Source: Chiloscyllium plagiosum
Lineage: Eukaryota
NCBI RefSeq assembly: GCF_004010195.1
Contig: NC_057718.1
Location: 104,317,722 to 104,337,721, forward strand
Direction of reading: 5' to 3'
Length of the DNA stretch: 20,000 nt
Shown here in pieces: positions 2,881-20,000 of this stretch. The position numbers and the translations under genes are program-made. Position 1 is the first letter of the stretch. Every line of letters begins with the position of its first letter. The notes under the pieces were generated by a model that was not told where the DNA came from, did no database searches, and saw nothing but the letters and a program-made list of their open reading frames with translations.

Positions 2881-3767
2881 GGGGTCCCTGATTCATGAGC
2901 ATCTGACTTCACGAAAACTTGTACAAACACAATCCCAAACAGAAATATAATTTTAAAGACCTGACATATGAACATTTCCTATACTTACAAGTGTCTTATT
3001 TGGTATTGTAATCCAACTGGAACACAAATTGATGGATAAGTGGACTCCGGAATGGAACCCATTCATAAGCCAGAGACTGCCTTTACTGAATGACATCTCC
3101 AATAGGGCGAGAGAGCAGGCTGCTGTCCAGGTTCTGCCCTCTGGTTGGGTATAACATTGCTGGTGGGGAACCTGCAGAAATAACTCCTCACTCATGGTCA
3201 TCAGCGGAGAGATTCAGCCTAATATTAAAGACACAATTTCCATTCCTGAAGTAGAACCTTGGTCAAAAGCAACTCTGCAGGTGAGCAGCAGTGACTTAAC
3301 AATGTCCCTCTGGAACTCAACAACACTAAGCTCCAATCTTTATTAACAATGATATCATGAGTTGCTGTTTGATTAGCTCTAGCTAGGGGTAATAGAGCTG
3401 TGCCTGACACATAGACAGTCATGGAATGATCATATCATTCAGCTTATAAAATGTAGCATGCATAAAGGATATGTTGAGAATCTCTGGAATATGGCACAGC
3501 AACCAACGTTTATGGTGTGTTTCAGTTTGAAATTGGAGCTCCATCAAATAATCAGAGAGAATCTCTCATCGGCCCAATACTTCCTCCTCTTTGGTCACAT
3601 TACAAGGTTCTCCTCCGGTTAATGCCCTCAAAGTGAAGTGGTCAGACTTCCGTCCCCTGGCATCTGGGCCTAACTAAGATCACCTCCAAAGTTCTGGTGA
3701 AGATGTATCGGCAAGAAATCCACTGGGCAATGACAGATTATACTGTACCGACATGACTGGAGAGATG

Positions 3768-3961
3768 TGTACTTGAAAATCTGAGGAGTAAGAGACTCGA
3801 TGTTTTGGGCATGAGCCCTTCATCAATCCCTTCCCCACATTCCTGATGAATGGCTTCCGCCTGAAACATTGACTCTCCTGCTCCTCGGATGCTGCCTGAC
3901 CTGCTGTGCTTTTCCAGCACCACACTCTGATCTCCAGCATCTGCAGTCCTCACTTTCTCCC
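3768..3961 (+). mobile_element. Fold-back Penelope-like pLTR insert with decayed hammerhead motif, nested in the Gypsy element
   Basis: TSD TGA(C/T)TGGAGAGATG at 3754-3767 and 3962-3975; inverted arms about 3779-3825 and 3844-3890; CTGATGA at 3843-3849 followed by ggc-ttcc-gcc then tGAAAcattga. Confidence 0.75.
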
Positions 3962-4165
3962 TGATTGGAGAGATGAGCCTTCCCTATTATTTTCTGAAAT
4001 GAATTTTTTAACTCAATTCCTAAAACTGTTTCTGGCCTCTTTGTAAAAAAAAGGTTCACCCAGTTCTGGTCAGTTTGAAATTAATTTCCCAACCTGGTGG
4101 TCCAGTCCAAGGAATCTCAGGACACCATTCACACAGTTTGGTTGTGGAAAGTTGCTGATAATTTC

Positions 4166-4185
4166 GGGGGGGGGGGGGGGGGGGG
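4166..4185 (+). repeat. Poly-G run (20 nt)
   Basis: Directly visible homopolymer inside the Gypsy remnant. Confidence 0.95.
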
Positions 4186-5244
4186 TTCTGAGGGGTAACC
4201 ATTGAACCTTTCTGATATATGATGGGTGCTAGGAATTTAATAGCAGCGTTCACACATCCATATTTCCCACTGAAGGTGAGACTTGCCTCTGGGAACACTT
4301 TCCTAACCTCATGGATGCTGTGGTCACACTCCTGGCTTGTAACACCATGACTATCCACATCACACATTCCCTTCCAGAAAGATTGATACAGTCCTCTTGA
4401 ATATCTCTGGAGCAGTTGAAATGCCACAAGGAAGGTATTTTTGAAGCTGGTTGACCTGAAAAGTTGTTAACAGGCTCCTGGTCAAAACCCACCACTAATG
4501 ACATGCTTTGTGACGTAGGTTGGTTTTGCTAAATGGTCATCCACTCAGTGTGGTTGGATTTCCAAATGGGTTTATGGATGCTATTGAGTCGGGTCCTACG
4601 TGGAGCATGGTGCACCATTTGTCCCAGGAACCACTACGAGCCCTAACCACCCCCCTCAACGATGACATCTTCTTAGACAGCATCCGGCAGTGGCTGCTTC
4701 TGGGAGTGTATGGAAATATGGGGTTAGCTTTTTAAACAATCTCACGTGATGTTCACTTTTGAGTCTCCCAAGACCCTGAAAGAGCTGTGGGAATTCTTGG
4801 CAGAATGTTATGCCATTTCCCTGCTCCCGGTGCTTATCTGCATTTCTCAGAAGCCAGTTGTATCCTTGTATTTCTGCTCAATAGAATGGTGACATGACTG
4901 CTCAACATGGAGACAGTCTCAGTAGTCTCTTTCCTCTTGTGTCTGGCTGTATGAGCAATGTGAAGGTTTGCGTCTCCTTCAATTCTGGACGGCTGAACGT
5001 TTAATTCTTCGCTTCATTCCAAATGGTCACATAGGACCCATGACACCTGCACTGGAGGAAAGATCCATTTCAGCTCTGAAGCCTTGAAGTAGCTGACCAA
5101 ATGCTTGTTCTTGATTCTGCACTCTCGTGGGGGATCTGTCTCCTCCTGCATTGCCTGTTTCTCAGAGATATTCTCGTGCTTTCTTCATTTTGTTGCATAT
5201 TTAGATTTGCAGAGGTTGCCCTGTCTTCCTGCGGTGCAGACATC

Positions 5245-5260
5245 CAGCGCCCCCTGCTGC
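5245..5260 (-). promoter_or_regulatory. Candidate CTCF core motif
   Basis: Minus strand GCAGCAGGGGGCGCTG closely matches the CTCF core CCASYAGRKGGCRS. Confidence 0.4.
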
Positions 5261-6000
5261 TTGATCTGTCGATAGCAGCAATTTATGATTAAACTGGCAT
5301 CACTTTCACTTGTTACCATTTGTTTGTGGTTTGGGTTCCAGTTTGAATCAGATTTAGTCGGCTCTGTGGGTTACTTGTGGCTTGGTGTATATTACAGCGA
5401 TTTCCTCTACCTAAGAATGACTACTGTATGGGCACAGTCAGTTTCTGCAAAACTCAGTTTTTGACACTACAATAAACATTATAGTGTAGAATCTAAAAAC
5501 TGCCCCTTCTCTCTACTCAGGACTGTTCCATCACTACATACACTATTTCCACATTACTCTACAAATATACTTTTCACTTCAGAGCATGTCTTGGTTGAAT
5601 TTAAGATCACAAACTCAGGGAAACTAATCTTACATCACAACTGGATCCTTTCTGAGCCTCTCCTGTAATTCAGTGGGATCCCAGCTGCTGCTCACACTGG
5701 ACAATGGAGGTCATGAATTGAATACGCCTCTATAGACCATAAGTTTCATTTTTGTAAATTTGATACCATGGTAGTTAATTATTTAATATAATTTACAAAA
5801 TGCTGCCAATGTAATTAAAATATTTAAAGTTTATCATACAAAAAAAAACATTTTGAAACATCTTCCTGTAAACAGCAAGTAAGATTCAACTCTTATTTTC
5901 CCCAACAGTATCCTTTACAGGTACTCAACCCCAGTGAATTAACATTCATATCTTCATTTCACAATTTCTTACTCAATTGTTTAGGCCATAAGTATTTCCT

Positions 6001-6215
6001 GGGTCTAGACTAGAGTGGTGCTGGAAAAGCACAGCCAGTCAGGCAGCATCCGAGGAGCAGGAAAATCAACGTTCCGGGCAAAAGCCCTTCATCAGGAAGA
6101 GCTTTTGCTCAAAACGTCGATTTTCCTGCTCCTCGGATGCTGCCTGGCCGGCTTTGCTTTTCCAGCACCATTCTAGTCTAGACTCTGATTTCCAGCATCT
6201 GCAGTCCTCACTTTT
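6001..6215 (+). mobile_element. Fold-back Penelope-like pLTR insert with decayed hammerhead motif
   Basis: TSD GCCA(T/C)AAGTATTTCCT at 5985-6000 and 6216-6231; arms about 6003-6090 and 6096-6183 with a 5-nt loop; minus strand reads ttcCTGATGAagggcttttgcccGGAAcgttga. Confidence 0.85.
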
Positions 6216-7363
6216 GCCACAAGTATTTCCTCTCAGCCGTTCAGCAGATTTGATTGTCTCTGTTTCTTACGGAAATACACAGACACGAGCTAACTCACTG
6301 AGCTTTCCTCACAGAAAAGCTATGGACCTGTTCTGGTAATGTCTACTTGCACTGCTAAAAAAAGCTTTAGCCTTCTTTTCAGCTCTGATGAACTGGGGAT
6401 GACCAAAATCAAACTTCCTTTCTGCTGGATTGGATCTTTACCTGCTTCGGAATGGAATCTACTTATGGCCATTGGCTTCTCTTTCTGCTGGCTATGAGGG
6501 GTAGCTTTTGAATGACAGGCCTGCTGAGGTAGATGTCAAAGATCCCTCAACACTACTTGGGAAGGAGAATGGAATCCTCCCTTGGTGTCCAGTGTCACAT
6601 TTCACTGGAATGGTACACTGGGAATTGAGCCCTGCTATTTCTGGAGTAACAGACATGTTGGTTGAAGGGCCTGTCCTTGTGTTGCACTGTTCTATGTTCT
6701 ATGCATTAAGTTATGCAAAATTCCCCAATGTCCCAGTTTTTAGACGCAAATTGTAAGGAAGTATGGACCAGATCTCTGCCATTAACAAGAATTAACAATA
6801 AATAGAAACTAACTATAGGTGAACAATTAGGTCAACATATAACGCTACTAGTTTTAATTCTAACCCCCTTATAGAACTCTCCCTATGCATGCATGCTGAC
6901 AAACACAAAAACAGGGAAGGCTGTTAAATGGTCCCCACAGGATTCACTGAGATAATCCCTTTGGCTTGTCAGAACTTGCCACTCCTCAATACTTTTACTT
7001 GACCGCAGGAAGGACAGAGCAACTGTTCGTAACTCATAAAGTCTGCTTTATTTGTTACAAGCAACAGCGTGCAGCAACTGGAGAGGGAAAATAAAGTGGC
7101 TTTCATTAGGCTTTAGAGTGTTTTTTTTTACACTACCTTCCTATCCAGAGATCTCATGGATTCTTACTAATTATTCAGACCCACAAGGTGTTCAGCTGCC
7201 AGCCAGCCAATCACATAGTTGTTATCAGGCAGAAGGCCATGGCCATTGGTCATCATTCTACTGACCAATCAGCTACTTGTTGTCATTGGAATTGCATTCA
7301 GTTCATCCGCAACTAACCTTCCCCTCACTGGTTGACCAAGTAACAGTGTGACCAGCAATTACA

Positions 7364-7577
7364 ATGATAAAAATAGGAATTGCTGAAAAAGCTCAGCAGG
7401 TCTGGCAGCATCTGTGAAGAGTAATCAGATTTAACTTGGTTCTGAGGAAGGGCCAGCCGACCCGAAATATTAACTCTGATTTCTCTCCCACGGATGCTGC
7501 CAGACCTGCTGAGTTTTTCCAGCAATTTCTGTTTTTGCTTCTGATTTCCAGCATCTGCAGTTCTTTTAGTTTTAATT
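7364..7577 (+). mobile_element. Fold-back Penelope-like pLTR insert, second family, with hammerhead motif in the loop
   Basis: TSD CAGCA(A/G)TTACA at 7353-7363 and 7578-7588; arms about 7369-7434 and 7470-7536; gtt-CTGAGGA(7442-7448)-a-ggg...ccc-GAAA(7464-7467)-tatt-aac. Confidence 0.8.
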
Positions 7578-7737
7578 CAGCAGTTACAGGGTTTGGATGA
7601 CTTGGTTTTAAGAACTGCTGCAATCCCTGCCACAATCCTTTGCTTTTAAATCAGTCCTTTTCCCAGTTCAGTGAACAAGCAAAAATACAGACAAATACAC
7701 CAGGATTAATACTTATCCCATAAGACAACATCACAAA

Positions 7738-7865
7738 AGAATCTTGCTGTTTGCTGTGCACAAATTGGTTGCTGCTTTTCTTGTACAACACTGACTACAT
7801 TGTAAAAGGATTTCACTGGCACTTTGAGGCAGTCAGGGGTGGAGAAAGGCTGTATATAAATGCAC
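7738..7865 (+). mobile_element. DeuSINE (SacSINE1/AmnSINE1-like) Deu domain and 3' tail fragment
   Basis: ttgctgtgcacaaattggttgctgc...acaacactgactaca...aaaggctgtatataaatgca matches the recalled Deu domain and tail. Confidence 0.7.
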
Positions 7866-7939
7866 CATATTTTTTATTGTTCTCCCACAGGGGAGTTAAT
7901 TCTAATATCTTATTCAGCAGTGCTTTAGAATATCACTTC

Positions 7940-8489
7940 TGTTGTGACACAAAACCAAACACCATCTTTAAACCTTGGGTTTTCTTTTAATGTCAGAACA
8001 ATAGAAGCAGCCTGAATGTGTGGGGTCACAGAACCCAGATTTTTAGTTTTAGCTTTCAGCAGTTGCTGGGTCTTGAAGCTGGATGTGGAAGCTCTTATTC
8101 CTCTCTCTGTTACAGCTAAAAGCTGGGATTCTCTTCCTGCTGCTAGACTCACATGTGAGTCAATCTGTCTTACTGAATTCACCTTTGCCAGCGGTGTGTT
8201 TATGAGATGTCACAGTATTGGAACAGTTCAGTAGTGGTGGTTTATATATTGTTTTGTTAAGCATTTCAATAGACTTACAATTAAACCTATTCCTTTCTTT
8301 TATCCTTATTTTGTCTATATTTTAACTATAGTGTAAAAATAAAAGGTGTTTTGCTTAAAGTCAAGTAGTTTGGCCAATCAAATTGCATCTGGAATGCAAC
8401 ATCTTACACTTACCTTTAAAATAAGAAAAGGTTAGGGTCTAGACTATCCTCTTCATATAATTTGAGGGAGTTTGGTCAGGTCCATAACA
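7940..8489 (+). mobile_element. Possible solo LTR
   Basis: TGTTGTG...CATAACA termini (TG...CA with short imperfect inverted repeat), AATAAA at 8338-8343; no TSD found. Confidence 0.4.
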
Positions 8490-9880
8490 CCATGACCTTA
8501 TCGAATGATAGAACAGGTGTGAAGGGCTGAATGGCCTACTTTTGTTCCTAAGCCCATTGTTTCCATGAATGAATTTTGCCTCTTGTACAGATTTCTTTTT
8601 GTGTGAGTGAGGGGAGGGTGGAAGTGGAGGTTGCAAGTGACAGAGGCAATCCCGGAAGAGAGGGGGGGTGAGGGAAGGAGGCTTCAAGGTGAATGGGCAA
8701 ATCTGCAAGAGGGAGGGTTAGAGGAAGATGCTACAGGAGGATGCAAAAAGGTCTATGGGGAGAGGTTACAAGAAAGGGGGTAGCTGAAAGAGGAGAGAAG
8801 GAGAACAAATTATCAGCGGCTACAGAAGTGCACCCTCAAGAAGAACTTGTAGGAGGCAAGGGGAGAAAATTGCCCCAAAAGAAAACCCGAACAATTCTTC
8901 CCTACTGTCTTTTTAAATCTGAATAAAGCCAAAGCCTGGTTGCTCTGCCAAAGGGCTAGCACAGAACCAATGGGCCAAAAGGTCACCTTCTGTTCTGTAT
9001 GTTACTGCTGTACAAAGTCAAAGGGTGAAGTAACTACATCTTACCAATGTTCTCCTTTCAGTCAGACCTCAGAAAATCAGTACTTAATCAATATTTAAAT
9101 TTTGTAATGATGCATTTGTAATTAAATTAAAAATACAAAAAGATTGAAAGATGAATAAATGCACGTCAGAAAGGATTATATTTAAAATGCTGCATCTATT
9201 CATTGCATCAATTCCAAAACCCCTGTTTTCTTTGTTTGTCAGGCAATTTTTAAGCAGGTACAACCTCCACAATTAACGAAATTGCCTTCCAGGCTGGTAG
9301 AAAGCATTCATTTTTGTCAAGGCAAATTCTGTAATTGGTCTTTAAAATGAGTAGCGAGTGATTGTCTTGGAGGCGGGGATGTTACAGCTTTGCCTCCTTA
9401 GAAAATAAAGCAACGCCACCCAGGAAGTCAATTACTCTCTTACTGAAAAGCAGCCCATTGCAGAAATAACCCACCTCAACTGAGGAGAAATGGCAAGCCA
9501 TAACCCAGTGCACAGAGCTGCTTAAACATTCCTCTCGACATGTAAGCAATTCACTACATGCCACACATGTCCCGGAATGTGTTCACAAAGCAACAACATC
9601 AACAATGGCTTGTGTTCTCTCCTTCACAATCTAAATGTTGATTCTCAAAGGCACATGCAGTGTACATGCCCTGCACATTCCAACATGCCCGGCCCCATTA
9701 CACACAAAGGGGAATTCTACACCAGTAGGCACCTGTGTGGCTAAGGCAGAACACTGTAATTAAAGTAAAGGTGCATTGATATGTTTCTAGCTGGTGTTGC
9801 AGTCCTATCCCAGGAATTTAGTTATAATAATGTCCCATCTGTACCTCTTGAACACTCCAACACAGTCCCTAGTCTGAGCA

Positions 9881-10072
9881 TGATGTGGAGATGCAGTGTT
9901 GGACCGGATGGACAAGGTCAGAAATCACACAATTACCAGGTTATAGTCCAACAGGTTTATTTGAAATCACAAGCTTTCGGAGCGCTGGCCCTTTCTCAGG
10001 TTTTACCTGATGAAGTTCGTGATTTCAAGTGAACCTGTTGAACTATAACCTGGTGTCGTCTGAATCCTGACC
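9881..10072 (-). mobile_element. Fold-back Penelope-like pLTR insert, third unrelated family, with decayed hammerhead motifs
   Basis: TSD AGTCTGAG(C/T)A at 9871-9880 and 10073-10082; arms about 9916-10001 and 10005-10072; minus strand CTGAgaaagggccagcgctccGAAAgcttgtg; the + arm has CTGATGA at 10007-10013 with stem II deleted. Confidence 0.8.
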
Positions 10073-10203
10073 AGTCTGAGTAAACTAACTCTATCCCCTT
10101 AATCACAGCAACCCCACTTCAAGGTAGGCAACCTCCACCGATTACAATCAGTGACAGAATCACACAGGGTTTGTGGCACAGAAAGAGGCCATTTCACCCA
10201 TCA

Positions 10204-10410
10204 TGTGTGTGTGTGAGAGAGAGAGAGACTGTATCTCTGTGTGTGTGAGAGAGAGAGACTGTGTCTGTGTGTGTGTGAGAGAGAGAGACTGTATCTCTGT
10301 GTGTGTGAGAGAGAGAGACTGTGTCTGTGTGTGAGAGATAGAGACTGTATCTCTGTGTGTGTGAGAGAGAGAGACTGTGTCTGTGTGTGCGTGCGTGAGT
10401 GTGCGTGTGT
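10204..10410. repeat. Compound (TG)n(AG)n repeat with 30-bp units forming a 60-bp higher-order dimer
   Basis: Alternating gactgtatctctgtgtgtgtgagagagaga and gactgtgtctgtgtgtgtgtgagagagaga units. Confidence 0.9.
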
Positions 10411-11154
10411 TGGATTATCACTGAGGAAATAAAAGCAAATTCCCTAACGAATGGTATTGAGTGAAGCATTCCCCCAGAGAGATCTTCATATTTCTTTACA
10501 CCTTTTTCTGGCTCTGCTGTATAAGTGTTAGCTGTCATCATGTGTTTGTAACACAGCACAGCGACAACTAATACATTTCAAATAAATATATTTAAAGAAG
10601 GTCGAGATTTACAAAAGAAAAATGTGATGAAGATTGGGAGATTCATCTCAATTTGTGAAAGGTCAAATATTTTGGTGTTATCATTGCCACAGATTACTAA
10701 TGAAACATTGGCTGTGTCTCAAAATAACACATGTCGCCAGAACATGACAGCTGGTGATGAGCGATCAAGATGCAACATAAATGGGTGATTTAGATAATAA
10801 CAATCTGGGGGAGGCAGAGGGAGAGAGCAAGGTTTTCAGAGAAATTCAATCCTTCTCACCATCGTATACATCCTACACATGAGTCACCTAATTAACCACC
10901 TGGGGTAACAATATGTAAGGCTATAATTAACCGTGACATTCAGAAACTGAAGTAAATAACTAAATTGTTCTTAGAAGAGTAACTATTCGTAATTATCACA
11001 TCTACAGTTCATTGCAATGTCATTCGCGGGAGAGGACACTGACATCTAACTTAACGTGTGAAAGACAACACAATTCAGAGAGAGGCTTTGTTTGGTTCGT
11101 GCTGAGAACCCAATAGGAACAGTGAGCATCAGTCACTAACCAACATGGGGAGGG

Positions 11155-11380
11155 TGTGGGTGATGGTAGTGTCACAGGACCCAGGCTAATGAGTATAGCC
11201 CTCCATGGCAGCTGGTGAATCAATAGCCCTGGAAACCCGTCGTCAAACCCATCTGGTTCATTAATGTCCTTTGAGTGGGGAAATCTCCGGCCTGGTCCTG
11301 CGTTGTTGATTCTAAAATGGTGTCATGAGCCAGTTTCAGGGCAGGTAGGGATGGGTAAAAAAATGGTTGCGACGACCAGG
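11155..11380 (+). mobile_element. Decayed tRNA-derived SINE (same family as 15580-15886)
   Basis: Shared core aaacccatctggttcattaatgtccttt...ggaaatct and tail gggcaggtagggatggg. Confidence 0.65.
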
Positions 11381-11409
11381 AAACAATAACAGAATTGCTG
11401 TTTATCAGC

Positions 11410-11725
11410 TGTGGCTGACTCTCAGCTCTGAGGTACAGGGTATAGGCTTGAAACCTACTCCAGAAACATGAACAAATAATCAAGGCTGACAATTCCACGC
11501 AGTACCGAGGGGGGTGCTATGCTGTCAGAGGTGTTCTCATTCAAATGGCATAATAACATGAGACTCAGTATGGGCATTTTAAAAATCCCTGTCGCGCTAT
11601 TCTAAAGGGGAGGAGGGGAGTCACCAGCAGTATTTATCTCTCCACCATCTAAACAGACCATATCACAAGTGAGAGCTTTCTGTGCACACATTGGCTGCCC
11701 TGTTTCCATAGTTACAACAGTTATA
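11410..11725 (+). mobile_element. DeuSINE (SacSINE1-like)
   Basis: aaggctgacaattccacgcagtaccgagggggtgctatgctgtcagaggtg and ctgtgcacacattggctgccctgtttcc...ttacaacagt. Confidence 0.7.
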
Positions 11726-11819
11726 TTTCTGAAGCTCCCTGGGCTGGGTAGTCAGGTTTTACAGATAGTCGGTGAATTGGTGGGATGAGAGAGCAGTCCA
11801 ATGAGAGACACCCATTAAT

Positions 11820-12150
11820 CTCCAGAGTTTGAGGGGCAAGGGCCAATCTCATTGAAACACAAGAGATTTTGGGGAGGAGGTAGCAGAGGGAAGATACAGA
11901 GAAGTCATTTCACCCATCGCCATAGAGCCCAGAACAGGTCATAGCCTGAGGAGAAGTATTGACTATTTAGGACTGAGATGAGGAGAAATGTCTTCACAGA
12001 GAGAATTTTGGGGAACCCTGTCATTGATTCTACTGAAGGTTCAAATTGAGAGATTCTTGGGCATTAGGGGACTCGAGGGACATTAAAAGAGCAGAATTGA
12101 TTAGGAACATTGGCTGTGATATTGTTGGATGTGAAGCAGGTTCTTGGGTT
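11820..12150 (+). mobile_element. Decayed CR1 3' fragment
   Basis: atctcattgaaacacaagag and tttaggactgagatgaggagaaatgtcttcacagagag (FRTEMRRNVFTE). Confidence 0.65.
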
Positions 12151-12165
12151 TAACTAAAGGACTAA

Positions 12166-12236
12166 AACTAAATTATTTCTCTTCACAGATATTGTCATAC
12201 TGGCTGAGTTTCTCTGGTATTTTCTGTTTTATTTCT
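12166..12236 (+). mobile_element. Degenerate single-arm remnant related to the 7364-7577 family
   Basis: tttctcttcacagatattgtcatactggctgagtttctctggtattttctgtttt aligns by eye with tttctctcccacggatgctgccagacctgctgagtttttccagcaatttctgtttt (7480-7535). Confidence 0.55.
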
Positions 12237-13125
12237 TGACGCCACACTCAGTCGAAAGCAGCCTTGATGTTGAGGGCTGTCCCTCTCCCCTCCCCTCTGG
12301 ACTTCAGCCCTTTTGTCCATGTTTGACCCAAGGCTGTAATGAGGTCAGGAGCTGAGTGACCCTGGGGGAACCCAAACTGGGTGTCACTGAGCAGGTTATT
12401 GCTGAGCAGGTGCTATTTGATAGCCCTGTTACTGACCCCTTCCATCACTTTACTGATGATCGAGAGTAGACTGATGGGGCGGGATTTGGTTGGGTTGAAT
12501 CTGTCCTGCTTTGTGTACAGGACATACCTGAGCAATTTTCCACATTGTCAGGTAGGTGTCAGTGATGTAACTGTATTGGAACAGCTTGGCTCGGGGAGCA
12601 GCAGGTTCTGGAGCACATGTTTTCAATACCATTACTGGAATGTTATCAGGGCCCATTGCCTTTGCAGTATCCAGTGTCTCCAATTCTTTCTTGATATCTT
12701 GTGGAGTGGATCAAATTGGCTGAAGACTGGTATCTGTAATGGAGGGGATCTCTGCAGGAGCCTGAGGTGGATCATCCACTCAGCATTTCTGATTGAAGAT
12801 TGCTGTGAATGCTTCAGCCTTATCTTGTGCCCTGATGTGCTGGGCTCCTCCATCATTGAGGATGGGGATATTTGTGGAGCCTCCTTCTCCAGTGAGTTGT
12901 TTAATCATCCACTACCATTCACGACTGGATGTGGAAGGACTGCGGAGCTTAGATCTAATCCATTGGTGATGGGATCATTTAGCTCCGTCTATCACTTACT
13001 GCTTATGCTGTTTGCCCATGTAAGCAGTCCTGTTTGGTGGCTTCACTAGGTTGACATCTCATCTTCAGGTATACCCGCTGCTGCTCCTGGCATGTCCTCC
13101 TGCACTCTCCATTGATCCAGGGTTG
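12237..13125 (-). mobile_element. CR1-clade LINE reverse transcriptase fragment (distinct family)
   Basis: LDTAKAMGPDNIPVMVLKTCAPEPAAPRAKLFQYSY...WKIAQVCPVHK; downstream GHSAPDLITAL and ALNIKAAFD-like motifs; frameshifted. Confidence 0.85.
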
Positions 13126-13139
13126 AATAGTTGAATAAC

Positions 13140-13375
13140 ATCTGTTACCCATTACTAATTGTCCTGGACCTGAGGGGTTTCCTTCGGCATTTCAGATTGC
13201 GATTGAGACAATCAAGTGAAAAGTTGTTGGGGTCTGGACTCATGTGTACATCAGACCAGGTAAGGAATGCAGATTTCCTTTTCTGAAAGACATGAGTAAA
13301 CCAGATGGGTTTTTGGTAACAATCAATGTTAGTTTCATAGTCAATGTCACGGAGACTAAAACTCAATTCCACATT
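13140..13375 (-). mobile_element. tRNA-derived SINE fragment (family of 15580-15886)
   Basis: Reverse complement carries aaaaacccatctggtttactcatgtctttcagaaaaggaaatctgc...cctggtctg...atgagtccagacccc. Confidence 0.65.
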
Positions 13376-14242
13376 TTCTGTAATCTCTCTAATGTTCTCT
13401 AATCCCCTCTACAATCATTTCAAACTGACAAGGATTAAATTACTGTTCGCACTCAAACCAGTTCAATACGGAGATCATCCCCAACACACCAGCACATGAA
13501 ACATAAATCACAACCAAGCCACATCAGAATATAATTAGAGAAGCTAAAGAGATGAAAACGTGGATGCAATTGTACTGTCGCTGTTGTTGGCTGTGCTACT
13601 CAGGATGAGAGTGGGACATCGCTCACTGATGCCTGAGCTTTGAAGTTTCTTCTTAGGAATATTTTTAAAGGGGCAATACGCTGGGAACACCACTCTGTTT
13701 CATCTCAGAGAAAGACAACAGCATTGAAACAGTATTATCCTATCCTTCAGAAAGTCTTAGGAAGGAGATACTGGCTAATGTAAGTTCACAAGAATGGTAT
13801 CTGGATTTCAGGGGTTAATTTATGAGGAGAGATTACACAAATTCAGTCTGTTTTCTATAGACATTAGAAGGTTAAGGGATGATCTCATTGAAGTCTTCAA
13901 GATACTAAAGGGAAAGACAGGATAGATAAAGACAAACTATTCCCACTGGTTGGGGATTTTAGAACTCAGGGCATAGTCTGAGGATTAGGGTGAAACCGTT
14001 CAGGAGAGATGTGAGGAAGCACTTCCACACACAAAGGGTGGGAGAGGTTTGGAAACCCTTTCCACGAATGGCAGTGGATGCTGGATCAGTAGTTAACTTT
14101 AAATCCAAGATAGATCATTTTTGTTAAGCAAGTTATTAACGGATATGGTAAAAACAATGACTGCAGATGCTGGAAACCAGATTCTGGATTAGAGTGTTGC
14201 TGGAAAAGCACAACAGCTCAGACAGCATCCAAGGAGCAGGAA

Positions 14243-14278
14243 AATCGACGTTTCGGGCAAAAGCCCTTCATCAGGAAT
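14243..14278 (-). ncRNA. Minimal type I hammerhead ribozyme motif (mirror copy)
   Basis: Reverse complement is identical to 14311-14346: attcCTGATGAagggcttttgcccGAAAcgtcgatt. Confidence 0.7.
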
Positions 14279-14310
14279 ACAGGCATAGTGCCTGAAGGGA
14301 CTCTGCCTGT

Positions 14311-14346
14311 ATTCCTGATGAAGGGCTTTTGCCCGAAACGTCGATT
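14311..14346 (+). ncRNA. Minimal type I hammerhead ribozyme motif
   Basis: CTGATGA (14315-14321), extra A, stem II GGGC-tttt-GCCC, GAAA (14335-14338), C-GTC (loopless stem III, predicted cut after 14342); stem I weak (attc/gatt). Confidence 0.7.
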
Positions 14347-14599
14347 TTCCTGCTCCTTGGATGTTGTCTGAGCTGCTGTGCTTTTCCAGCACCACTCTGA
14401 TCTAGAATTAAGGGATATGAGCCAAGGGCAGGCCTATGGAGTTAGTCTGTGATCACATTAAATGGCTGAACAGGCTTGATGGGCTGAATGTTCCTATGTA
14501 ATTTCACAAACAAAGTCTTTAGGAAGCCCTCAAGTCCAGAGTAACAGAATTAAATTGTACAGGAGTTTAAGGCAGTTGATATTTTCTACAGCTGCAGAG

Positions 14600-14887
14600 A
14601 GATGGTTAGCACTGCTGCCTCACAGCGGCAGGGACCCAGGTTTGAGTCCAGCCTCGGGTGACTGTCTGTGTGGAGTTTGCACATTCCCCCTGTCTTGGTG
14701 TGGGTTTTCTCCGGGTGCTCCGCTTTCCTCCCACAGTCAGTCCAAAGATATGCAGGTTAGGGTGGATTGGCAATGGGAAATGTGAGGTTCTGGGAATAGT
14801 GTGGGGAGCTGGGTCTCGGTGGGATACTCTTCAGAAGTTTGGTGCAGAAGTGATGCACCAAATGGCCTCTTCTGCAATGTAGGGATT
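14600..14887 (+). mobile_element. HE1-type V-SINE
   Basis: tggttagcactgctgcctcacagc head, V-domain ctgtgtggagtttgcacatt...ctccgggtgctccg.tttcctcccacagtc, CR1-like tail aatggcctcttctgcaatgtagggatt. Confidence 0.85.
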
Positions 14888-14889
14888 AT

Positions 14890-15190
14890 ACAGGAGGCCC
14901 TTTGGCCCATGGTGCCTATGTCTGTCATCAAACACTTACCTGTTCGAGTCCCATTTTCCAACACTTGGCGCACAGCCTTGGATACTTTGATGTTTCAAGT
15001 GCTCATCTAAATACTTCTGAAATGCCTTGATGGCCCCTCCAACTGCTATCCTTTTAGTGAGTTCCAGAGACCTACAACCCTCTGTGTGAAAATGTTCTTC
15101 CTTAAATCCCCTCCAAACCTGCTGCTCCTCACCTTAAAAGCATGCCTCCTGGTTAGCGACCCCTCTAAAGGAGAAATTTCTCCCCACCTC
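14890..15190 (-). mobile_element. Decayed CR1 3' fragment
   Basis: acaggaggccctttggcccat tail; acaaccctctgtgtgaaaatgttcttcct reads RKNIFTQRV on the minus strand. Confidence 0.7.
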
Positions 15191-15579
15191 CTGAGGTCAA
15201 ATGCCCCTCACGTGGGAGTGGGAGCACACGGTGCCCATTGGTGTGTTTGAGGCTTCCTGTCACCAGAGGAGCTATCATTAACATCTAACTTGACCATTCT
15301 ATTGGATTTTTTTTCCTTTAAATTTTAAACCTTTGATATCTGCTACAGCAACCCCTCCCTGCAGCAGGCAGGCTATAACCTGGTTTGATTTGACTGATTT
15401 AATTTGCAGTGCTGCCAAGGGTTGGGGATGTCATTTCGGTGATTTGTATTTTCCCAGCTGATTGTTTTCTGGTGTTTTTCCGAATGCCCAAGTAGGTGCC
15501 CATGATTGACAGCACTGACTACGTTTTGTACCTGCTGCGTCAAATATCACCATTTTCAGAAACTGTACACAAGACAAAG

Positions 15580-15886
15580 TAGTGGCAGAGTGATAATGTC
15601 ACTGGACTAGTAATCCAGAACATGGGTTCAAATCCCACCAAGGTGAAACTTGAATTCAATATTTTTAAAGATCTGGAATAAACAGCTCGTCCAATGGTGA
15701 CCAGATAACCATTACCGATTATCGTAAAAACCTATTTGGTATATTAATGTACTTTAGCGAAGGAAACTTATGTGGTGCGGCCTACATGTGACTTCAGACC
15801 CACAGCAGTGTGATTGACTCTTAACTGCCCTGTGGGCAATTAGGGATGGACAATAAATGTTGGTATGACAGTAACGCCCTCATCCC
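15580..15886 (+). mobile_element. tRNA-derived SINE, near full length
   Basis: A-box-like tggcagagtgat, B-box ggttcaaatcc, and body shared with 11155, 13140 and 16030 copies. Confidence 0.75.
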
Positions 15887-16029
15887 TCAACCCCAACTGC
15901 CTAATGGACCGATCTGGAAATGGTGGATTTTAATGCCTGTTGTTCTGGTATGTAGGTTTGCCATACAATTTCACAAAAAATACTGAAACAGTAAATTAAA
16001 CCATACCTTAGACAGATAGAATAATGGAA

Positions 16030-16475
16030 GGGTGTATTGTTCAGTGGACCAACATGCAGTCTCTCCCTCAGCAATGGCCCAGACTAAAATACTGGGGAGA
16101 TAGGTTCAGTTGAACAGTAAACTTGTGAGATTTAAATTCAATTAATAAATCCAGAATATATAGCTCACCTCAGTCAGAGTGAATACAAAACTACTGTTTG
16201 CCATAAAAGCCCATCAGGGTCACCAAAGTGCTTTCCGCAGGGAAATCTGTCATCTTTACCTGGTCTGGGCCTGTATGTCAGTCCACAGCTATGGTGGACT
16301 GATTGACTCTCAAGGTAAACGCCTATGAGAAAGCGAGGATTACAGATGCTGGAGATCAGATTCGAAAGTGTGGCAGGCCAGGCAGGATCCGAGGAGCAGG
16401 AGAGTTGACGTTTCGAGCATAAGCCCTGCTCAGTTAGGAACGGGCAATAAAACGTGGCACTGCCAGCAACGCTAG
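16030..16475 (+). mobile_element. Decayed copy of the same tRNA-derived SINE, interrupted by a pLTR-like arm
   Basis: aaaagcccatcagggtcacc...gggaaatctgtcatctttacctggtctgggcctgtatgt; the tail resumes after 16427 with ttaggaacgggcaataaa. Confidence 0.65.
16327..16427 (-). mobile_element. Single-arm remnant of the hammerhead/pLTR family, truncated at stem II
   Basis: gagaaagcgaggattacagatgctggagatcag...ttgacgtttcgagcataagccct; homologous to the 3768-3961 long arm; CTGATGA absent. Confidence 0.75.
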
Positions 16476-16729
16476 AATTTTACGAAGCTGCTCAACATGA
16501 AGGTGCAGTTCCTCATGGTGCAATTATAAATGGTTATAATTGACTGGATCGATGTCTGGCACTGCAACTCTGAAGGAGAGTTCGAGGGAAGATTCAATCC
16601 TCTCACATGAACCGTCTTCCTCAGGGCATTTCCCAGCACTTTCCCAGCAGCATCTCCTCCTCCCCTCCCCAAACCCTGAGCAATATCCAAGTGCAGTCAA
16701 TGTTCCATCTGGTCCATCTCTCCTCCTGG

Positions 16730-17010
16730 AGCATTTCGAATCCAGGGATCATGGTCTCAGGAAAAAGAGGTCAGCTCTGAGAAGAGTAGGAGCTATTGCT
16801 TCACTCAGAAAGTTTTGAGTGTTTGGAATTCTCCAGAGAGAGAGAGAGGGAGAGAGATGCCAAAGTTCAGCCGCAGACTCTGAGGGGTTGGATAGATTTG
16901 TGGACACCATGGGCATGATGGGAAATGGGGAGCTGGGCAGGAAAGTAGAATTTCAGCCGTGACGTTTTCTAAATAGCGGGGAAGATTAAAGGGGCCCAAT
17001 GGTCTTCTCC
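16730..17010 (+). mobile_element. Decayed CR1 3' fragment
   Basis: gaatccagggatcatggtctcagg...cttcactcagaaagttttgagtgtttggaattctc and tail ttaaaggggcccaatggtct. Confidence 0.6.
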
Positions 17011-17397
17011 CACTCAGACTGTGACATGACAGACCCAGACTCAGTACCAATGGAATGAGGCTTCAGTGAATCTGGATTCATAGAGAAGCACTGAGTCTGC
17101 TCCACCAATGCCTCAGTCCTGCTCGCACACTGATCAGTTGCCATGGTGAGGCACTTATTCAACAGTAAGAGTACGGCTATAATCATCTTAAATAATGCTA
17201 TTTCAAGATGCCAACATTCCCTGGATCATCTGCTGTGTTCTGGGAGGAGAAGACCTGGTAAAACCTGTGGCATTTAGACCTCGAGTCTCCACAACGTGAA
17301 CTCAGAGATATTTCCATCTTCACTGTATCAATCAAATGTCACAACATCCAAGTGGAAGGCAGTGATTGCATGGTTACTTCAGCATCTATACATTCCT

Positions 17398-17480
17398 GTG
17401 GTGTAGGGTAGTGCCCCTGCCTTTGAGCCAGGAGGTCTGGGTTCAAGTCCTACCTGCCCTGAAAGCGTGTCCAAAGAGGC
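17398..17480 (+). mobile_element. tRNA-like SINE head remnant
   Basis: gtggtgtagggtagtg (A-box-like) and gggttcaagtcc (B-box). Confidence 0.45.
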
Positions 17481-18209
17481 TGATTAGGAATCATCTGTAC
17501 AAGGTTCTTCTTCATTGGTTTCTCTCACAGGGAGGCATGACCTCTCTGAGACCATTACCTTTCAGCCTCAGGCCCCACAACTTCAGGAGTCTTGTGAAAG
17601 TTCTCCCTCGGCTATTTCCCTCGACTCGAGGAGCCCCTTGGTCATTTGCCCAGACCCGCCACAGTGGTCCGCACAGTGCTGGGGGTCCCCAGGTCTGTAC
17701 AGAGGCATTCTCCCCCTTACAGCAGGGATTTTGCGCGGACAGTGTTGCACACTTCAATCTTGTGCAATGTGAGAGTCTGATGACTCACGGACCTGTATAT
17801 TCGGTGACCTTGAGGGGCCCATGTTCCACGTGTTACACCAGCTGCACCATATTACAGCCCCCTTCCCCATAATCTAAAGAGGCCATTGCTATATTCCACA
17901 CTTGGGAGTGCGTTAAAGATGAGAAAGAAATTCTTCAGAATCTGGGTGTCCCTGAAGAGGGGGATGAAGTCTCCATCAGCTCAACATCTTTACAGCCAGT
18001 GGGCACCAAAGGGGCTACAGCACTGTATCGTTCACCTCAACAACTCCAGTTCCAGTTTCACAAGTTGCCTTTCAGGATTTGTTTTTATTACAGTCTACCT
18101 TTAAGGGGCTGTTACCTGTTGGTTCAGTTAGAACATAGAACAATACAGCACAGAACAGGCCCTTCAGCCCACGATGTTGTGCTGACCACTGATCCTCATG
18201 TATGCACCC

Positions 18210-19673
18210 TCAAATTTCTGTGACCATATGCATGTCCAGTAGTCTCTTAAATGTCCCCAACGACCCTGCCTCCACAACTGCTGCTGGCAACACATTCCAT
18301 GCTCTCGCAACTCTTTGTGTAAAGAACCTGCCTCTGACATCCCCTCTATACTTTCCTCCAACCAGCTTAAATCTATGACCCCTCGTGTTAGTCATTTCTG
18401 TCCTGGGAAATAGTCTCTGGCTATCGACTCTATCTATGCCTCTCATTATCTTGTATACCTCAATTAGGTCCCCTCTCCTCCTCCTTTTCTCCAATGAAAA
18501 ATGTCCAAGCTCAGTCAACCTCTCTTCATAAGATAAGCCCTCCAGTCCAGGCAGCATCCTGGTAAACCTCCTCTGAACCCTCTCCAAAGCATCCACATCT
18601 TTCCTATAATAGGGTGACCAGAACTGGACACAGTATTCCAAGTGCAGTCTAACCAAAGTTTTATAGAGCTGCAACAAGATCTCACGACTCTTAAACTCAT
18701 ATCCCCTGTTAAAGAAAGCCAAAACACCATATGCTTTCTTAACAACCCTGTCCACTTGGGTGGCCATTTTAAGGGATCTATGTACCTGCACACAAAGATC
18801 CCTCTGTTCCTCCACATGGCCAAGAATCCTATTCTTAATCCTGTACTCAGCTTTCAAATTCAACCTTCCAAAATGCATCACCTCGCATTTATCCAGGTTG
18901 AACTCCATCTGCCATCTCTCAGCCCATCTCTGCATCCTGTCAATGTCCCGCTGCAGCCTACAACAGCCCTCTATACTGTCAACAACATCTCCAACCTTTG
19001 TGTCATCTGCAAACTTGCTGACCCATCCTTCAATCCCCTCATCCAAGTCATTAATAAAAATTACAAACAGTAGAGGCCTAAGGATAGAGCCCTGTTGAAC
19101 ACCACTCACCATAGACTTCCAGGCAGAATATTTTCCTTCTACTACCACTCGCTGTCTTCTGTTGGCCAGCCAATTCTGTATCCAGACAGCTAAGTTCCCC
19201 TGTAGGTAAAAACAATGACTGCAGATGCTGGAAACCAGATTTTGGATTAGTGGTGCTGGAAGAACATAGCAGTTCAGGCAGCATCCGAGAAGCAGCAAAA
19301 TCGACCTTTCGTGATGAAGGGCTTTTTCCTGAAACGTCGATTTTGCTGCTCCTCGGATGCTGCCTGAACTGCTGTACTCTTCCAGCACCACTAATCCAAA
19401 TACTAAGTTCCCCTGAACCCCATTCCTCCTGACCTTCTGAATGAGCCTACCATGGGGAACCTTATCAAATGCCTTGCTGAAGTCCATATACACCACATCC
19501 ACAGCTCGACCCTCATCAACTTTTCTAGTCACATCCTCAAAGAACTTGATAAGGTTTGTGAGGCATGACCTGCCCCTCACAAAGCCGTGCTGACTGCATT
19601 TAATCAAGCCATGCTCTTCCAGATGGTCATAAATCCTATCCCTCAGAATCCTTTCTAACACCTTACAGACCAC
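18210..19673 (-). CDS. CR1 ORF2 reverse transcriptase reading frame (487 aa) including a 71-codon in-frame insertion; probably non-functional
   Basis: ORF track; QGNL is duplicated on either side of a foreign peptide; the frame is disconnected from upstream ORF2 piece 19734-19967. Confidence 0.75.
   Translation of the reverse strand: MVCKVLERILRDRIYDHLEEHGLIKCSQHGFVRGRSCLTNLIKFFEDVTRKVDEGRAVDVVYMDFSKAFDKVPHGRLIQKVRRNGVQGNLVFGLVVLEEYSSSGSIRGAAKSTFQEKALHHERSILLLLGCCLNCYVLPAPLIQNLVSSICSHCFYLQGNLAVWIQNWLANRRQRVVVEGKYSAWKSMVSGVQQGSILRPLLFVIFINDLDEGIEGWVSKFADDTKVGDVVDSIEGCCRLQRDIDRMQRWAERWQMEFNLDKCEVMHFGRLNLKAEYRIKNRILGHVEEQRDLCVQVHRSLKMATQVDRVVKKAYGVLAFFNRGYEFKSREILLQLYKTLVRLHLEYCVQFWSPYYRKDVDALERVQRRFTRMLPGLEGLSYEERLTELGHFSLEKRRRRGDLIEVYKIMRGIDRVDSQRLFPRTEMTNTRGHRFKLVGGKYRGDVRGRFFTQRVARAWNVLPAAVVEAGSLGTFKRLLDMHMVTEI
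19203..19402 (-). mobile_element. Fold-back Penelope-like pLTR insert within the CR1 RT
   Basis: Perfect 13-bp TSD CTAAGTTCCCCTG at 19190-19202 and 19403-19415; arms 19241-19310 and 19331-19400; central gTGATGAagggctttttcctGAAAcgtcga; 38-nt tail. Confidence 0.9.
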
Positions 19674-20000
19674 AGAGACTGACTGGTCTGTAATTGCCGA
19701 GGATTTCCCTATTTCCTTTCTTGAAGAGAGGAATTACATTTGCCTCTCTCCGTCCTCAGGTATGACTCCAGTGGAGAGCGAGGATGCAAAGATCTTCATA
19801 AATGGCGAAGCAATCGCATTTCTCGTTTCCCAAAGCAGCCGAGGACAAATCTGGTCCGGGCCTGGCGACTTGTCAATCTTAATGTTTGACAAAATTTTCA
19901 GCACATCAGCTTCCTCTATCTCTATCCATTCCAGCATGCACACCTGCTCTTCAAAGGTTTCATTCACTACAAAGTTTGTTTCTTTCGTAAAGAAAGAAGC

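Follow-up and report, generated by a model that had tools for sequence, protein, structure and literature searches.

The question raised by this locus is why one stretch of 20,000 nucleotides of the genome of Chiloscyllium plagiosum (contig NC_057718.1, positions 104,317,722 to 104,337,721 of the forward strand; hereafter the window, whose own numbering is used for the inserts) should hold six short insertions of the same build, each bounded by a target-site duplication (TSD), folded back on itself near a hammerhead ribozyme motif, and left with an unpaired tail on one side. These inserts, A to F, start at 3768, 6001, 7364, 9881, 14148 and 19203 and represent three families: N1 (A, B, E and F), N2 (C) and D (D). 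A previous sequence-only reading attributed them to a single mechanism in which, possibly, ribozyme-defined RNA ends and a fold-back or template switch during reverse transcription give rise to hairpins devoid of an open reading frame (ORF). The present analysis supports one mechanism across the families, with the turn likely at the transcription start of the element and not at the predicted ribozyme cut. Judging from longer copies of the same families, the six inserts are 5'-truncated 3' ends, i.e., pseudo-long terminal repeats (pLTRs), of endonuclease-bearing Penelope-like retroelements (PLEs); a hairpin probably arises from a single insertion, during which each of the two nicked target strands serves as primer for a short cDNA on the element RNA and the cDNAs are then linked in head-to-head orientation.

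The parents were reached using the arms of the inserts as queries and then walking upstream along the copies. In N1, the region upstream of the arm comprises a pyrimidine-rich 3' untranslated region (UTR) followed by a GIY-YIG domain, a Cys-rich linker and a reverse transcriptase (RT). In copy L024, whose arm is 93% like that of insert E, the RT (FLRYIDD), the linker (FPCHCRNCKTCAH) and the GIY-YIG domain are all in line with the pLTR; the Pfam matches to RVT_1 (E=5e-4) and GIY-YIG (E=4e-4) both fall below the cut-off, and the motifs were identified by direct reading. The same arm, on the same strand, terminates 26 of the 30 top N1 coding loci; among the remaining four, two contain gaps and one stops at a contig end. 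The same coding-to-arm order was found for N2 in copy L218 (linker FPCKCKGCNHC), and in family D copy L273 is coding, with a protein 28-34% identical to that of N1 and the linker QPCHSRCCKTCQ. The six stubs themselves are non-coding, and it is these longer members of the three families that reach the RT, the linker and the GIY-YIG domain, in agreement with the Penelope-like origin proposed earlier. The Zn-finger-like Cys motif between the RT and the C-terminal GIY-YIG endonuclease, present in N1, N2 and D, is a mark of the Neptune and Nematis clades (PMC8557442; this and the other papers are cited from parts of their text). Placed by this motif, the parents would be linker-bearing PLEs of the Neptune/Nematis type. 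A choice between the two clades would presumably go by host range only.

The layout of the pLTR is revealed by copies such as L263 and L280, in which the arm and its tail continue into the 5' body of the element and a second pLTR follows the ORF as a partial tandem; a pLTR running into the 5' body was seen in 40 copies. Since the tail is continuous with the body, it corresponds to the first ~35 nt beyond S, the site where untailed arms end, and tailed arms end at a second site, L. Both sites are found in every family, and the order along the element is promoter region, hammerhead motif, arm, S end, tail, L end and body. In the hairpins L036:3102-3445, L140:2332-2711 and L109 the tailed arm extends 40-140 nt into the 5' body; the arm of L036 starts at -4 (arm positions here and below are relative to the initial C of the hammerhead core, CUGANGA, on the core-reading strand) and was therefore templated by an upstream pLTR-body junction. 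At a large scale, the hairpin architecture recurs in L273:199-3084, a 2.9 kb head-to-head insertion of family D: both arms contain coding parts, one end is S and the other L, and the TSD measures 12 bp. A fourth hammerhead family, K (L147, L159 and L085), terminates at S and L sites of its own, and TATAAA is located near -50 in nine of its 11 long copies; no short hairpins occur among its 24 arms in the sample described below, and its coding end differs from that of the other families and is taken to be Poseidon-like.

An inverted 5'-truncated copy and a one-sided tail of 30-40 bp are typical of endonuclease-bearing PLEs, whose retrotransposition cycle is described as undefined (PMC8557442). 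The units reported for this group share with those found here the head-to-head truncated copy, the tail at one end, a TSD of ~8-16 bp, the hammerhead motif in the pLTR and partial tandems upstream of the ORF (PMC8557442, PMC3846280); those found here differ in that they are mostly ~200 bp long, lack coding sequence and reach a very high copy number. The architecture of the inserts has already been published for the class, and the inserts are new members of it.

The properties of the hairpins were determined in a sample of 140 stretches of 10 kb, 10 of them beside the window and the other 130 placed on large contigs at round coordinates (1,340,207 non-N bases of a genome of 3.56 Gb), in which arms were called against 29 natural long copies as references. 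The 482 arms called correspond to 369 insertions: 258 solos, 105 head-to-head pairs, six with a direct pair (two of which also contain an inverted arm) and no tail-to-tail pair; the reversed sequence of the sample gave no arm match. The called 3' fragments make up ~4.6% of the sampled DNA. Hairpins of up to 260 bp account for 100 of the 105. By extrapolation, the genome would hold ~270,000 copies. The frequency of one hairpin per 3 kb proposed earlier applies to the window and, at one per 3.6 kb, to Penelope 3' fragments of all kinds; for hairpins the value is one per 12.8 kb. The window is thus about four-fold rich in hairpins (Poisson p=0.005 for six in 20 kb, in a window chosen because of them). 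Excluding records too close to the edge of a stretch, a TSD bounds 64 of the 107 hairpins considered, those of the window among them, and 43 of the 246 solos, as compared with 0% and 0.8% for shuffled flanks; the TSDs of the hairpins measure 8-29 bp, with a mode of 14-15, and are all different.

All 105 two-arm inverted pairs are head to head, and their 3' ends are strongly paired. Among the 71 hairpins in which both ends could be classified, 68 combine one L and one S end, two are L/L and one is S/S, whereas independent choice from the ends of the solos (116 L, 97 S) predicts 35, 21 and 15, respectively (p=7e-14); in the other 34 an arm lies at the edge of a stretch or ends elsewhere. Consequently the tail is one-sided in 68 of 71 hairpins, with a median length of 35 nt (28-45 nt in 49 of 58). 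Columns diagnostic of subfamilies are concordant between the two arms in 384 of 432 cases (shuffled pairs have a mean of 0.62 and a maximum of 0.71), and in some hairpins private changes are common to both arms; therefore both arms derive from one source. A ranking by arm-to-arm distance was uninformative for old copies and was replaced by these columns. In contrast to the ends, the centres are variable: 99 of 101 junctions are distinct, and two junction types recur in the sample. Eighteen junctions overlap by at least two letters, 19 are near blunt and 64 carry at least two filler letters. In many cases the filler repeats a short piece of the element that lies close by and served as template, which suggests repeated priming and release during joining. 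The asymmetric ends, the TSDs and the distinct centres show that these are not miniature inverted-repeat transposable elements (MITEs). The junction of insert E was found at only four sites genome-wide and that of insert B at 275; the latter recurs because of a natural complementarity of three letters, and its tail lies on the side of one arm at 245 sites and of the other at 189. Many subfamilies are represented among these sites, and roughly one in ten of the matches listed for these counts has extra filler.

According to the mechanism that we favour as the simplest, a form of twin priming, the endonuclease would nick the two target strands 10-16 bp apart, giving rise to the TSD; one 3'-OH would prime at L and the other at S, and the tail would represent the spacing between the two RT start sites. 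The RNA would carry a cap and begin 3-8 nt before the hammerhead core, with a TATA-like box 30 nt further upstream. As a consequence, cDNAs primed in the upstream pLTR would run out of template after ~95-135 nt; their two 3' ends would then be joined via microhomology or short filler. The resulting stubs would be dead ends, because the upstream promoter is absent from them, and the presence of the ribozyme at the turn would reflect its place at the very beginning of the transcript instead of a cut made there.

The explanation that competes best with this one, which we nevertheless regard as rather unlikely, is that a single cDNA primed at L folds near the 5' end of the RNA and is copied back, the endonuclease resolving the product at S, and that later central deletions blur the junction. 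This would account for the single tail of each hairpin, the arms of the same subfamily and their common private changes; the commonest junction could be a snap-back on 3 bp, and the tail has indeed been ascribed to endonuclease-mediated resolution (PMC8557442). Nevertheless, unless deletions follow, the tailed arm should always reach further upstream, and it does so in only 22 of 68 hairpins, with equality in 17 and the opposite in 29; at the sites with the junction of insert B the opposite is seen in 189 of 434. A simple fold-back of one cDNA, as suggested in the previous reading, is thus disfavoured, given that either arm may reach further. In addition, S is already a free-standing end in the 97 solos that terminate there, and filler of at least two letters is present in the majority of junctions, as stated above.

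The second element of the favoured mechanism, a turn set by the start of transcription, depends on where the arms begin. Starts at -12 to +7 were found in 116 of 208 hairpin arms and 101 of 233 solos, and at +24 to +33, around the predicted hammerhead cut (~+28 to +30; the self-cleavage activity is itself predicted only), in 10 of 208 and 15 of 233. Given that missing reference subfamilies can fake a pile-up, the count was repeated for ends fixed independently, i.e., hairpins with tight junctions and solos bounded by a TSD: 64 of 124 arms and 24 of 42 solos start at -12 to +7, and 7 of 124 and 2 of 42 at +24 to +33. The breakpoints thus sit ~30 nt upstream of the predicted cut and leave the whole core in place, which speaks against RNA ends defined by the ribozyme. 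The modes are -4/-3 in N1, -4 in N2 (broad; also given as -3/-4) and -8 in D (also given as -7/-8). Of 28 long D copies, 24 have TATAWA at -36 to -40, and 4 of 18 N2 copies have it at -33; in both families this places the box 30 nt upstream of the mode. The modes of N1 and N2 fall on TCATTCC and TCAGTTC, which we take to be initiator-like. An untemplated G precedes 40 of 76 starts located exactly at a mode (13 of 16 in family D) but only 45 of 157 starts at +8 to +95 (p=3.5e-4), and such a G is expected when RT copies a cap, as in L1. Because the TATA box lies 30 nt upstream of the pile-up in two families and the extra G accompanies it, the turn is likely set by transcription start and not by ribozyme cleavage. 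Two candidate signals were discarded: a pile-up of family K at -2 is a reference artefact, since most such arms continue upstream, and a splice-acceptor origin of the stop at -4 was rejected as copies stopping there have no common upstream exon.

Instead of a transcription start, the pile-up could reflect stalling of the RT in the pyrimidine-rich 3' UTR that immediately precedes the hammerhead, an option that we judge improbable. N1 and N2 are C/T-rich in this upstream region, and N1 has no canonical TATA; however, the pile-up moves with the TATA box between D and N2, family D is not pyrimidine-rich at this place, and stalling leaves the extra G unexplained. Much less probable is that an antisense transcript primes itself at its 3' end, as was put forward for the head-to-head junctions of rotifer Penelope elements (PMC3846280). 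The head-to-head orientation of all hairpins fits this proposal, but not the solos with the same 5' pile-up, the TATA box 30 nt upstream on the sense strand or the extra G, and a sense template works in vitro (PMC11167929).

That hammerhead self-cleavage sets the RNA end and the point of fold-back is very hard to sustain. A minimal hammerhead motif with covarying stems was detected by a pattern scan in four families, and its conservation favours this reading; likewise, a few copies start at +27/+28 (the short arm of insert C, L288, L319 and L031). Cleavage, however, would strip the core from the 3' product, and most arms retain it. As a turn-setter for the bulk of the hairpins it is largely refuted, and a minor class derived from cleaved RNA is possible. 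The motifs resemble the minimal hammerheads of metazoan PLEs, with a long helix II, a helix I of 2-4 bp and a palindromic ACGU/AGCU in place of helix III (PMC4209133). The Rfam scan returned no hammerhead family at E<=1, only sub-threshold microRNA-like matches to long hairpins. When single motifs were folded, helix II was clear only for that of insert E (z=-2.5); those of inserts C and D and the 146-nt unit of L263 folded no better than shuffles, hence no monomer ribozyme fold is claimed. Finally, MITE-like or retrozyme-like masters that propagate as non-autonomous hairpins, to which the 275 sites of one junction and the two recurrent types could point, are scarcely credible: 99 distinct junctions exclude the spread of a master hairpin and agree with the independent events considered in the previous reading, the insert E junction is rare, the recurrent one spans many subfamilies with the tail on either side, the TSDs are long and no two are the same, only 6 of 369 insertions hold a direct tandem, and no clade with a common junction, polarity and arm-specific mutations was seen.

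Several observations weigh against joining of two cDNAs at a transcription start. In vitro, no strand difference in start site was seen, which leaves the strict pairing of L with S devoid of a biochemical explanation (PMC11167929); later central deletions could also generate both junction polarities; and an arm terminates at neither S nor L in 28 of 105 hairpins. Long inverted insertions have likely collapsed in the assembly, so that long-armed events are under-counted; in this respect, long copies (L100, L065, L261-L280) often adjoin assembly gaps. Regarding the start, missing reference subfamilies create part of the raw pile-up, including some older N1 solos, and in the largest family, N1, nothing closer to a TATA box than a degenerate TTTATC/CTTATC is present at the corresponding position (-35/-37). 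The extra-G signal falls to 15 of 35 when the unbiased sample is taken by itself and to 4 of 11 in N1b, and the test was post hoc, the signal having been first noticed in the same data and the start positions being the modes. The 40 body-joined copies have a boundary near the pile-up position that is nevertheless unsharp: 34 start at or downstream of -30, six upstream of it, four at -30 to -15, only eight at -7 to +9 and 22 at +20 to +97, two of them exactly at +28. Furthermore, the 1081 reads of an RNA run (X19) showed no discrete starts; 97% continue into unlike sequence, as expected for copies inside host transcripts, and 133 loose ends at -4 were interpreted as genomic stubs within such transcripts and not as a start site.

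Joining of two cDNAs has a close counterpart in the Poseidon element of Anolis (PAc) studied in vitro. Its protein, predicted to be dimeric, nicks the two target strands and extends both of them; RT begins internally at two points of the pLTR-ORF junction, one at each boundary of the tail. Ribozyme mutants retain the ability to insert, and neither start site showed strand preference (PMC11167929). As in the elements described here, the two start sites are about one tail apart, downstream of the hammerhead at the pLTR-body junction; PAc, however, belongs to another clade, and inverted products are not among its reported outcomes in the text consulted. Because of the lack of strand preference in that study, the strict rule of one L and one S end is something that we infer from the present data. 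In L1 twin priming, the second target strand primes a second cDNA and the junction shows microhomology; in that case the inverted part is a non-duplicated 5' part and internal priming is random, whereas the two cDNAs proposed here would be copies of one and the same stretch, primed at two fixed sites.

For the metazoan hammerheads, pairs on opposite strands 100-700 bp apart were described, cleavage and circularisation were proposed, and the Drosophila virilis intron ends at helix I (PMC4209133); in contrast to that model, the stubs found here derive mostly from RNA that retains the core. In D. virilis, transcription starts inside the upstream pLTR from a TATA-less internal promoter (PMC2377424), and in rotifers TATA and initiator (Inr) motifs were reported in a pLTR together with head-to-head palindromes (PMC3846280). 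Non-LTR retrozymes are likewise non-coding, hammerhead-bearing derivatives of PLE pLTRs, but they are defined as head-to-tail tandem arrays (bioRxiv 10.64898/2026.07.22.740005), and the insertions studied here are head-to-head pairs and solos, 105 being head-to-head and six of 369 having a direct pair. Strict L+S pairing and a TATA-linked 5' pile-up were not found in the text consulted of PMC8557442 or PMC3846280, and no paper on two-cDNA joining or such a pile-up in PLEs was found in a search confined largely to the main text of openly available papers.

A more specific version of the favoured mechanism can be advanced tentatively, at somewhat less than an even chance: an asymmetric dimer may hold one RNA at two fixed points separated by 35 nt, priming both target strands at once, the tail being its footprint and the inverted pLTR the second cDNA. 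With priming at the pLTR-body junction, capped linear RNA would yield nothing but 200-bp stubs that end at the TATA-defined start, and coding copies would need a tandem or circular template. If this is true, ~270,000 fossil products in this genome would record the open mechanism of the class. How inverted, tailed PLE insertions are made is stated as unresolved (PMC8557442), and what the stubs add is a set of countable constraints on it, i.e., the invariable head-to-head order, almost always one L and one S end, arms from the same source and 5' ends that are likely transcription starts and not ribozyme cuts. The in vitro system already available could be used to test these directly. In genome annotation, the stubs mimic microRNA hairpins or MITEs and should be filed under their parent elements.

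Turning to the individual inserts, the TSDs reported previously were recovered with lengths of 14, 16, 11, 10, 13 and 13 bp for A to F; so were the tails, which measure ~32 nt in B, 41 in C, 34-35 in D, 33-34 in E and 38 in F, with ~71 nt unpaired in A, and the position of the turn, since every insert has at least one arm starting 2-25 nt upstream of the core. Fold-back was seen in all six, with an arm complementarity of 83-94% in five. The only intact-looking cores in the window are the two of insert E; most are decayed, with a conserved core letter changed in B, D and F. Homologous empty sites with a single copy of the target, in which the flanks are repeats, were found for E (three of three spanning hits) and F (36 of 39), thus demonstrating a true duplication at both; the same search gave no homologous empty site for A to D.

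Insert A (3768-3961) lies between TSD copies at 3754-3767 and 3962-3975 (14 bp, one mismatch). Its short inverted arm (3776-3825, minus strand) starts at ~+1 and stops early, at ~+50, which explains the long unpaired part, and its long arm (3835-3961, plus strand) runs from -8 to the L end and includes a decayed minimal hammerhead motif at 3843-3870. Insert B (6001-6215; TSD 5985-6000 and 6216-6231, 16 bp, one mismatch) has a short arm (6001-6098, minus strand) from -3 to the S end, with a core start at 6095 and an altered GAAA, and a long arm (6096-6215, plus strand) from +5 with the tail at 6184-6215; both arms hold the three nucleotides GAA at 6096-6098. In insert C (7364-7577; TSD 7353-7363 and 7578-7588, 11 bp, one mismatch) the short arm (7369-7434, minus strand) spans +27 to the S end, and the long arm (7439-7577, plus strand) starts at -3 preceded by an extra G, with a hammerhead motif at 7442-7471 and the tail at 7537-7577.

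The polarity is reversed in the other three, in which the long arm comes first. Insert D (9881-10072; TSD 9871-9880 and 10073-10082, 10 bp, one mismatch) has a long arm (9881-10001, minus strand) from -2, with a hammerhead motif at 9999-9971 that has one core letter altered and the tail at 9881-9914, and a short arm (10005-10072, plus strand) from -2 to the S end that has lost stem II by an internal deletion. Insert E (14148-14406; TSD 14135-14147 and 14407-14419, 13 bp, one mismatch) lies within an older repeat; its long arm (14148-14299, minus strand) starts at -25 and contains an intact hammerhead motif (14274-14247) and the tail (14148-14180), and its short arm (14296-14406, plus strand) starts at ~-19/-15 and has another intact motif at 14315-14342. 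Insert F (19203-19402), also within an older repeat, has an exact 13-bp TSD (19190-19202 and 19403-19415), a long arm (19203-19310, minus strand) from ~+20 with the tail at 19203-19240, and a short arm (19308-19402, plus strand) from -3 with an altered core start at 19311; TTC at 19308-19310 is common to both arms.

Two further fragments of these families are present in the window. One, at 16327-16430 on the minus strand, is a seventh N1 fragment, a solo tailed arm of 73% identity with an internal deletion, located within another repeat, for which the TSD search was negative; the second is an old N2 arm fragment at 12175-12230 on the plus strand (79% identity). Long interspersed element (LINE) fragments, presumably CR1-like, occupy ~18130-20000, 13790-14500, 12350-13130 and 1000-1430, and inserts E and F lie within two of them; the stretch 1303-1430 is 73% similar to 19392-19519. 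The decayed RT-coding 3' end of another LINE, with a terminal short CAATT repeat, lies at ~1670-2560 on the plus strand. Repeats resembling short interspersed elements (SINEs) were found at 14590-14880 and 15580-15890, with a sub-threshold tRNA match at 15582-15639, and a compound (TG)n/(AG)n tandem repeat with a 30-nt period at 10204-10410.

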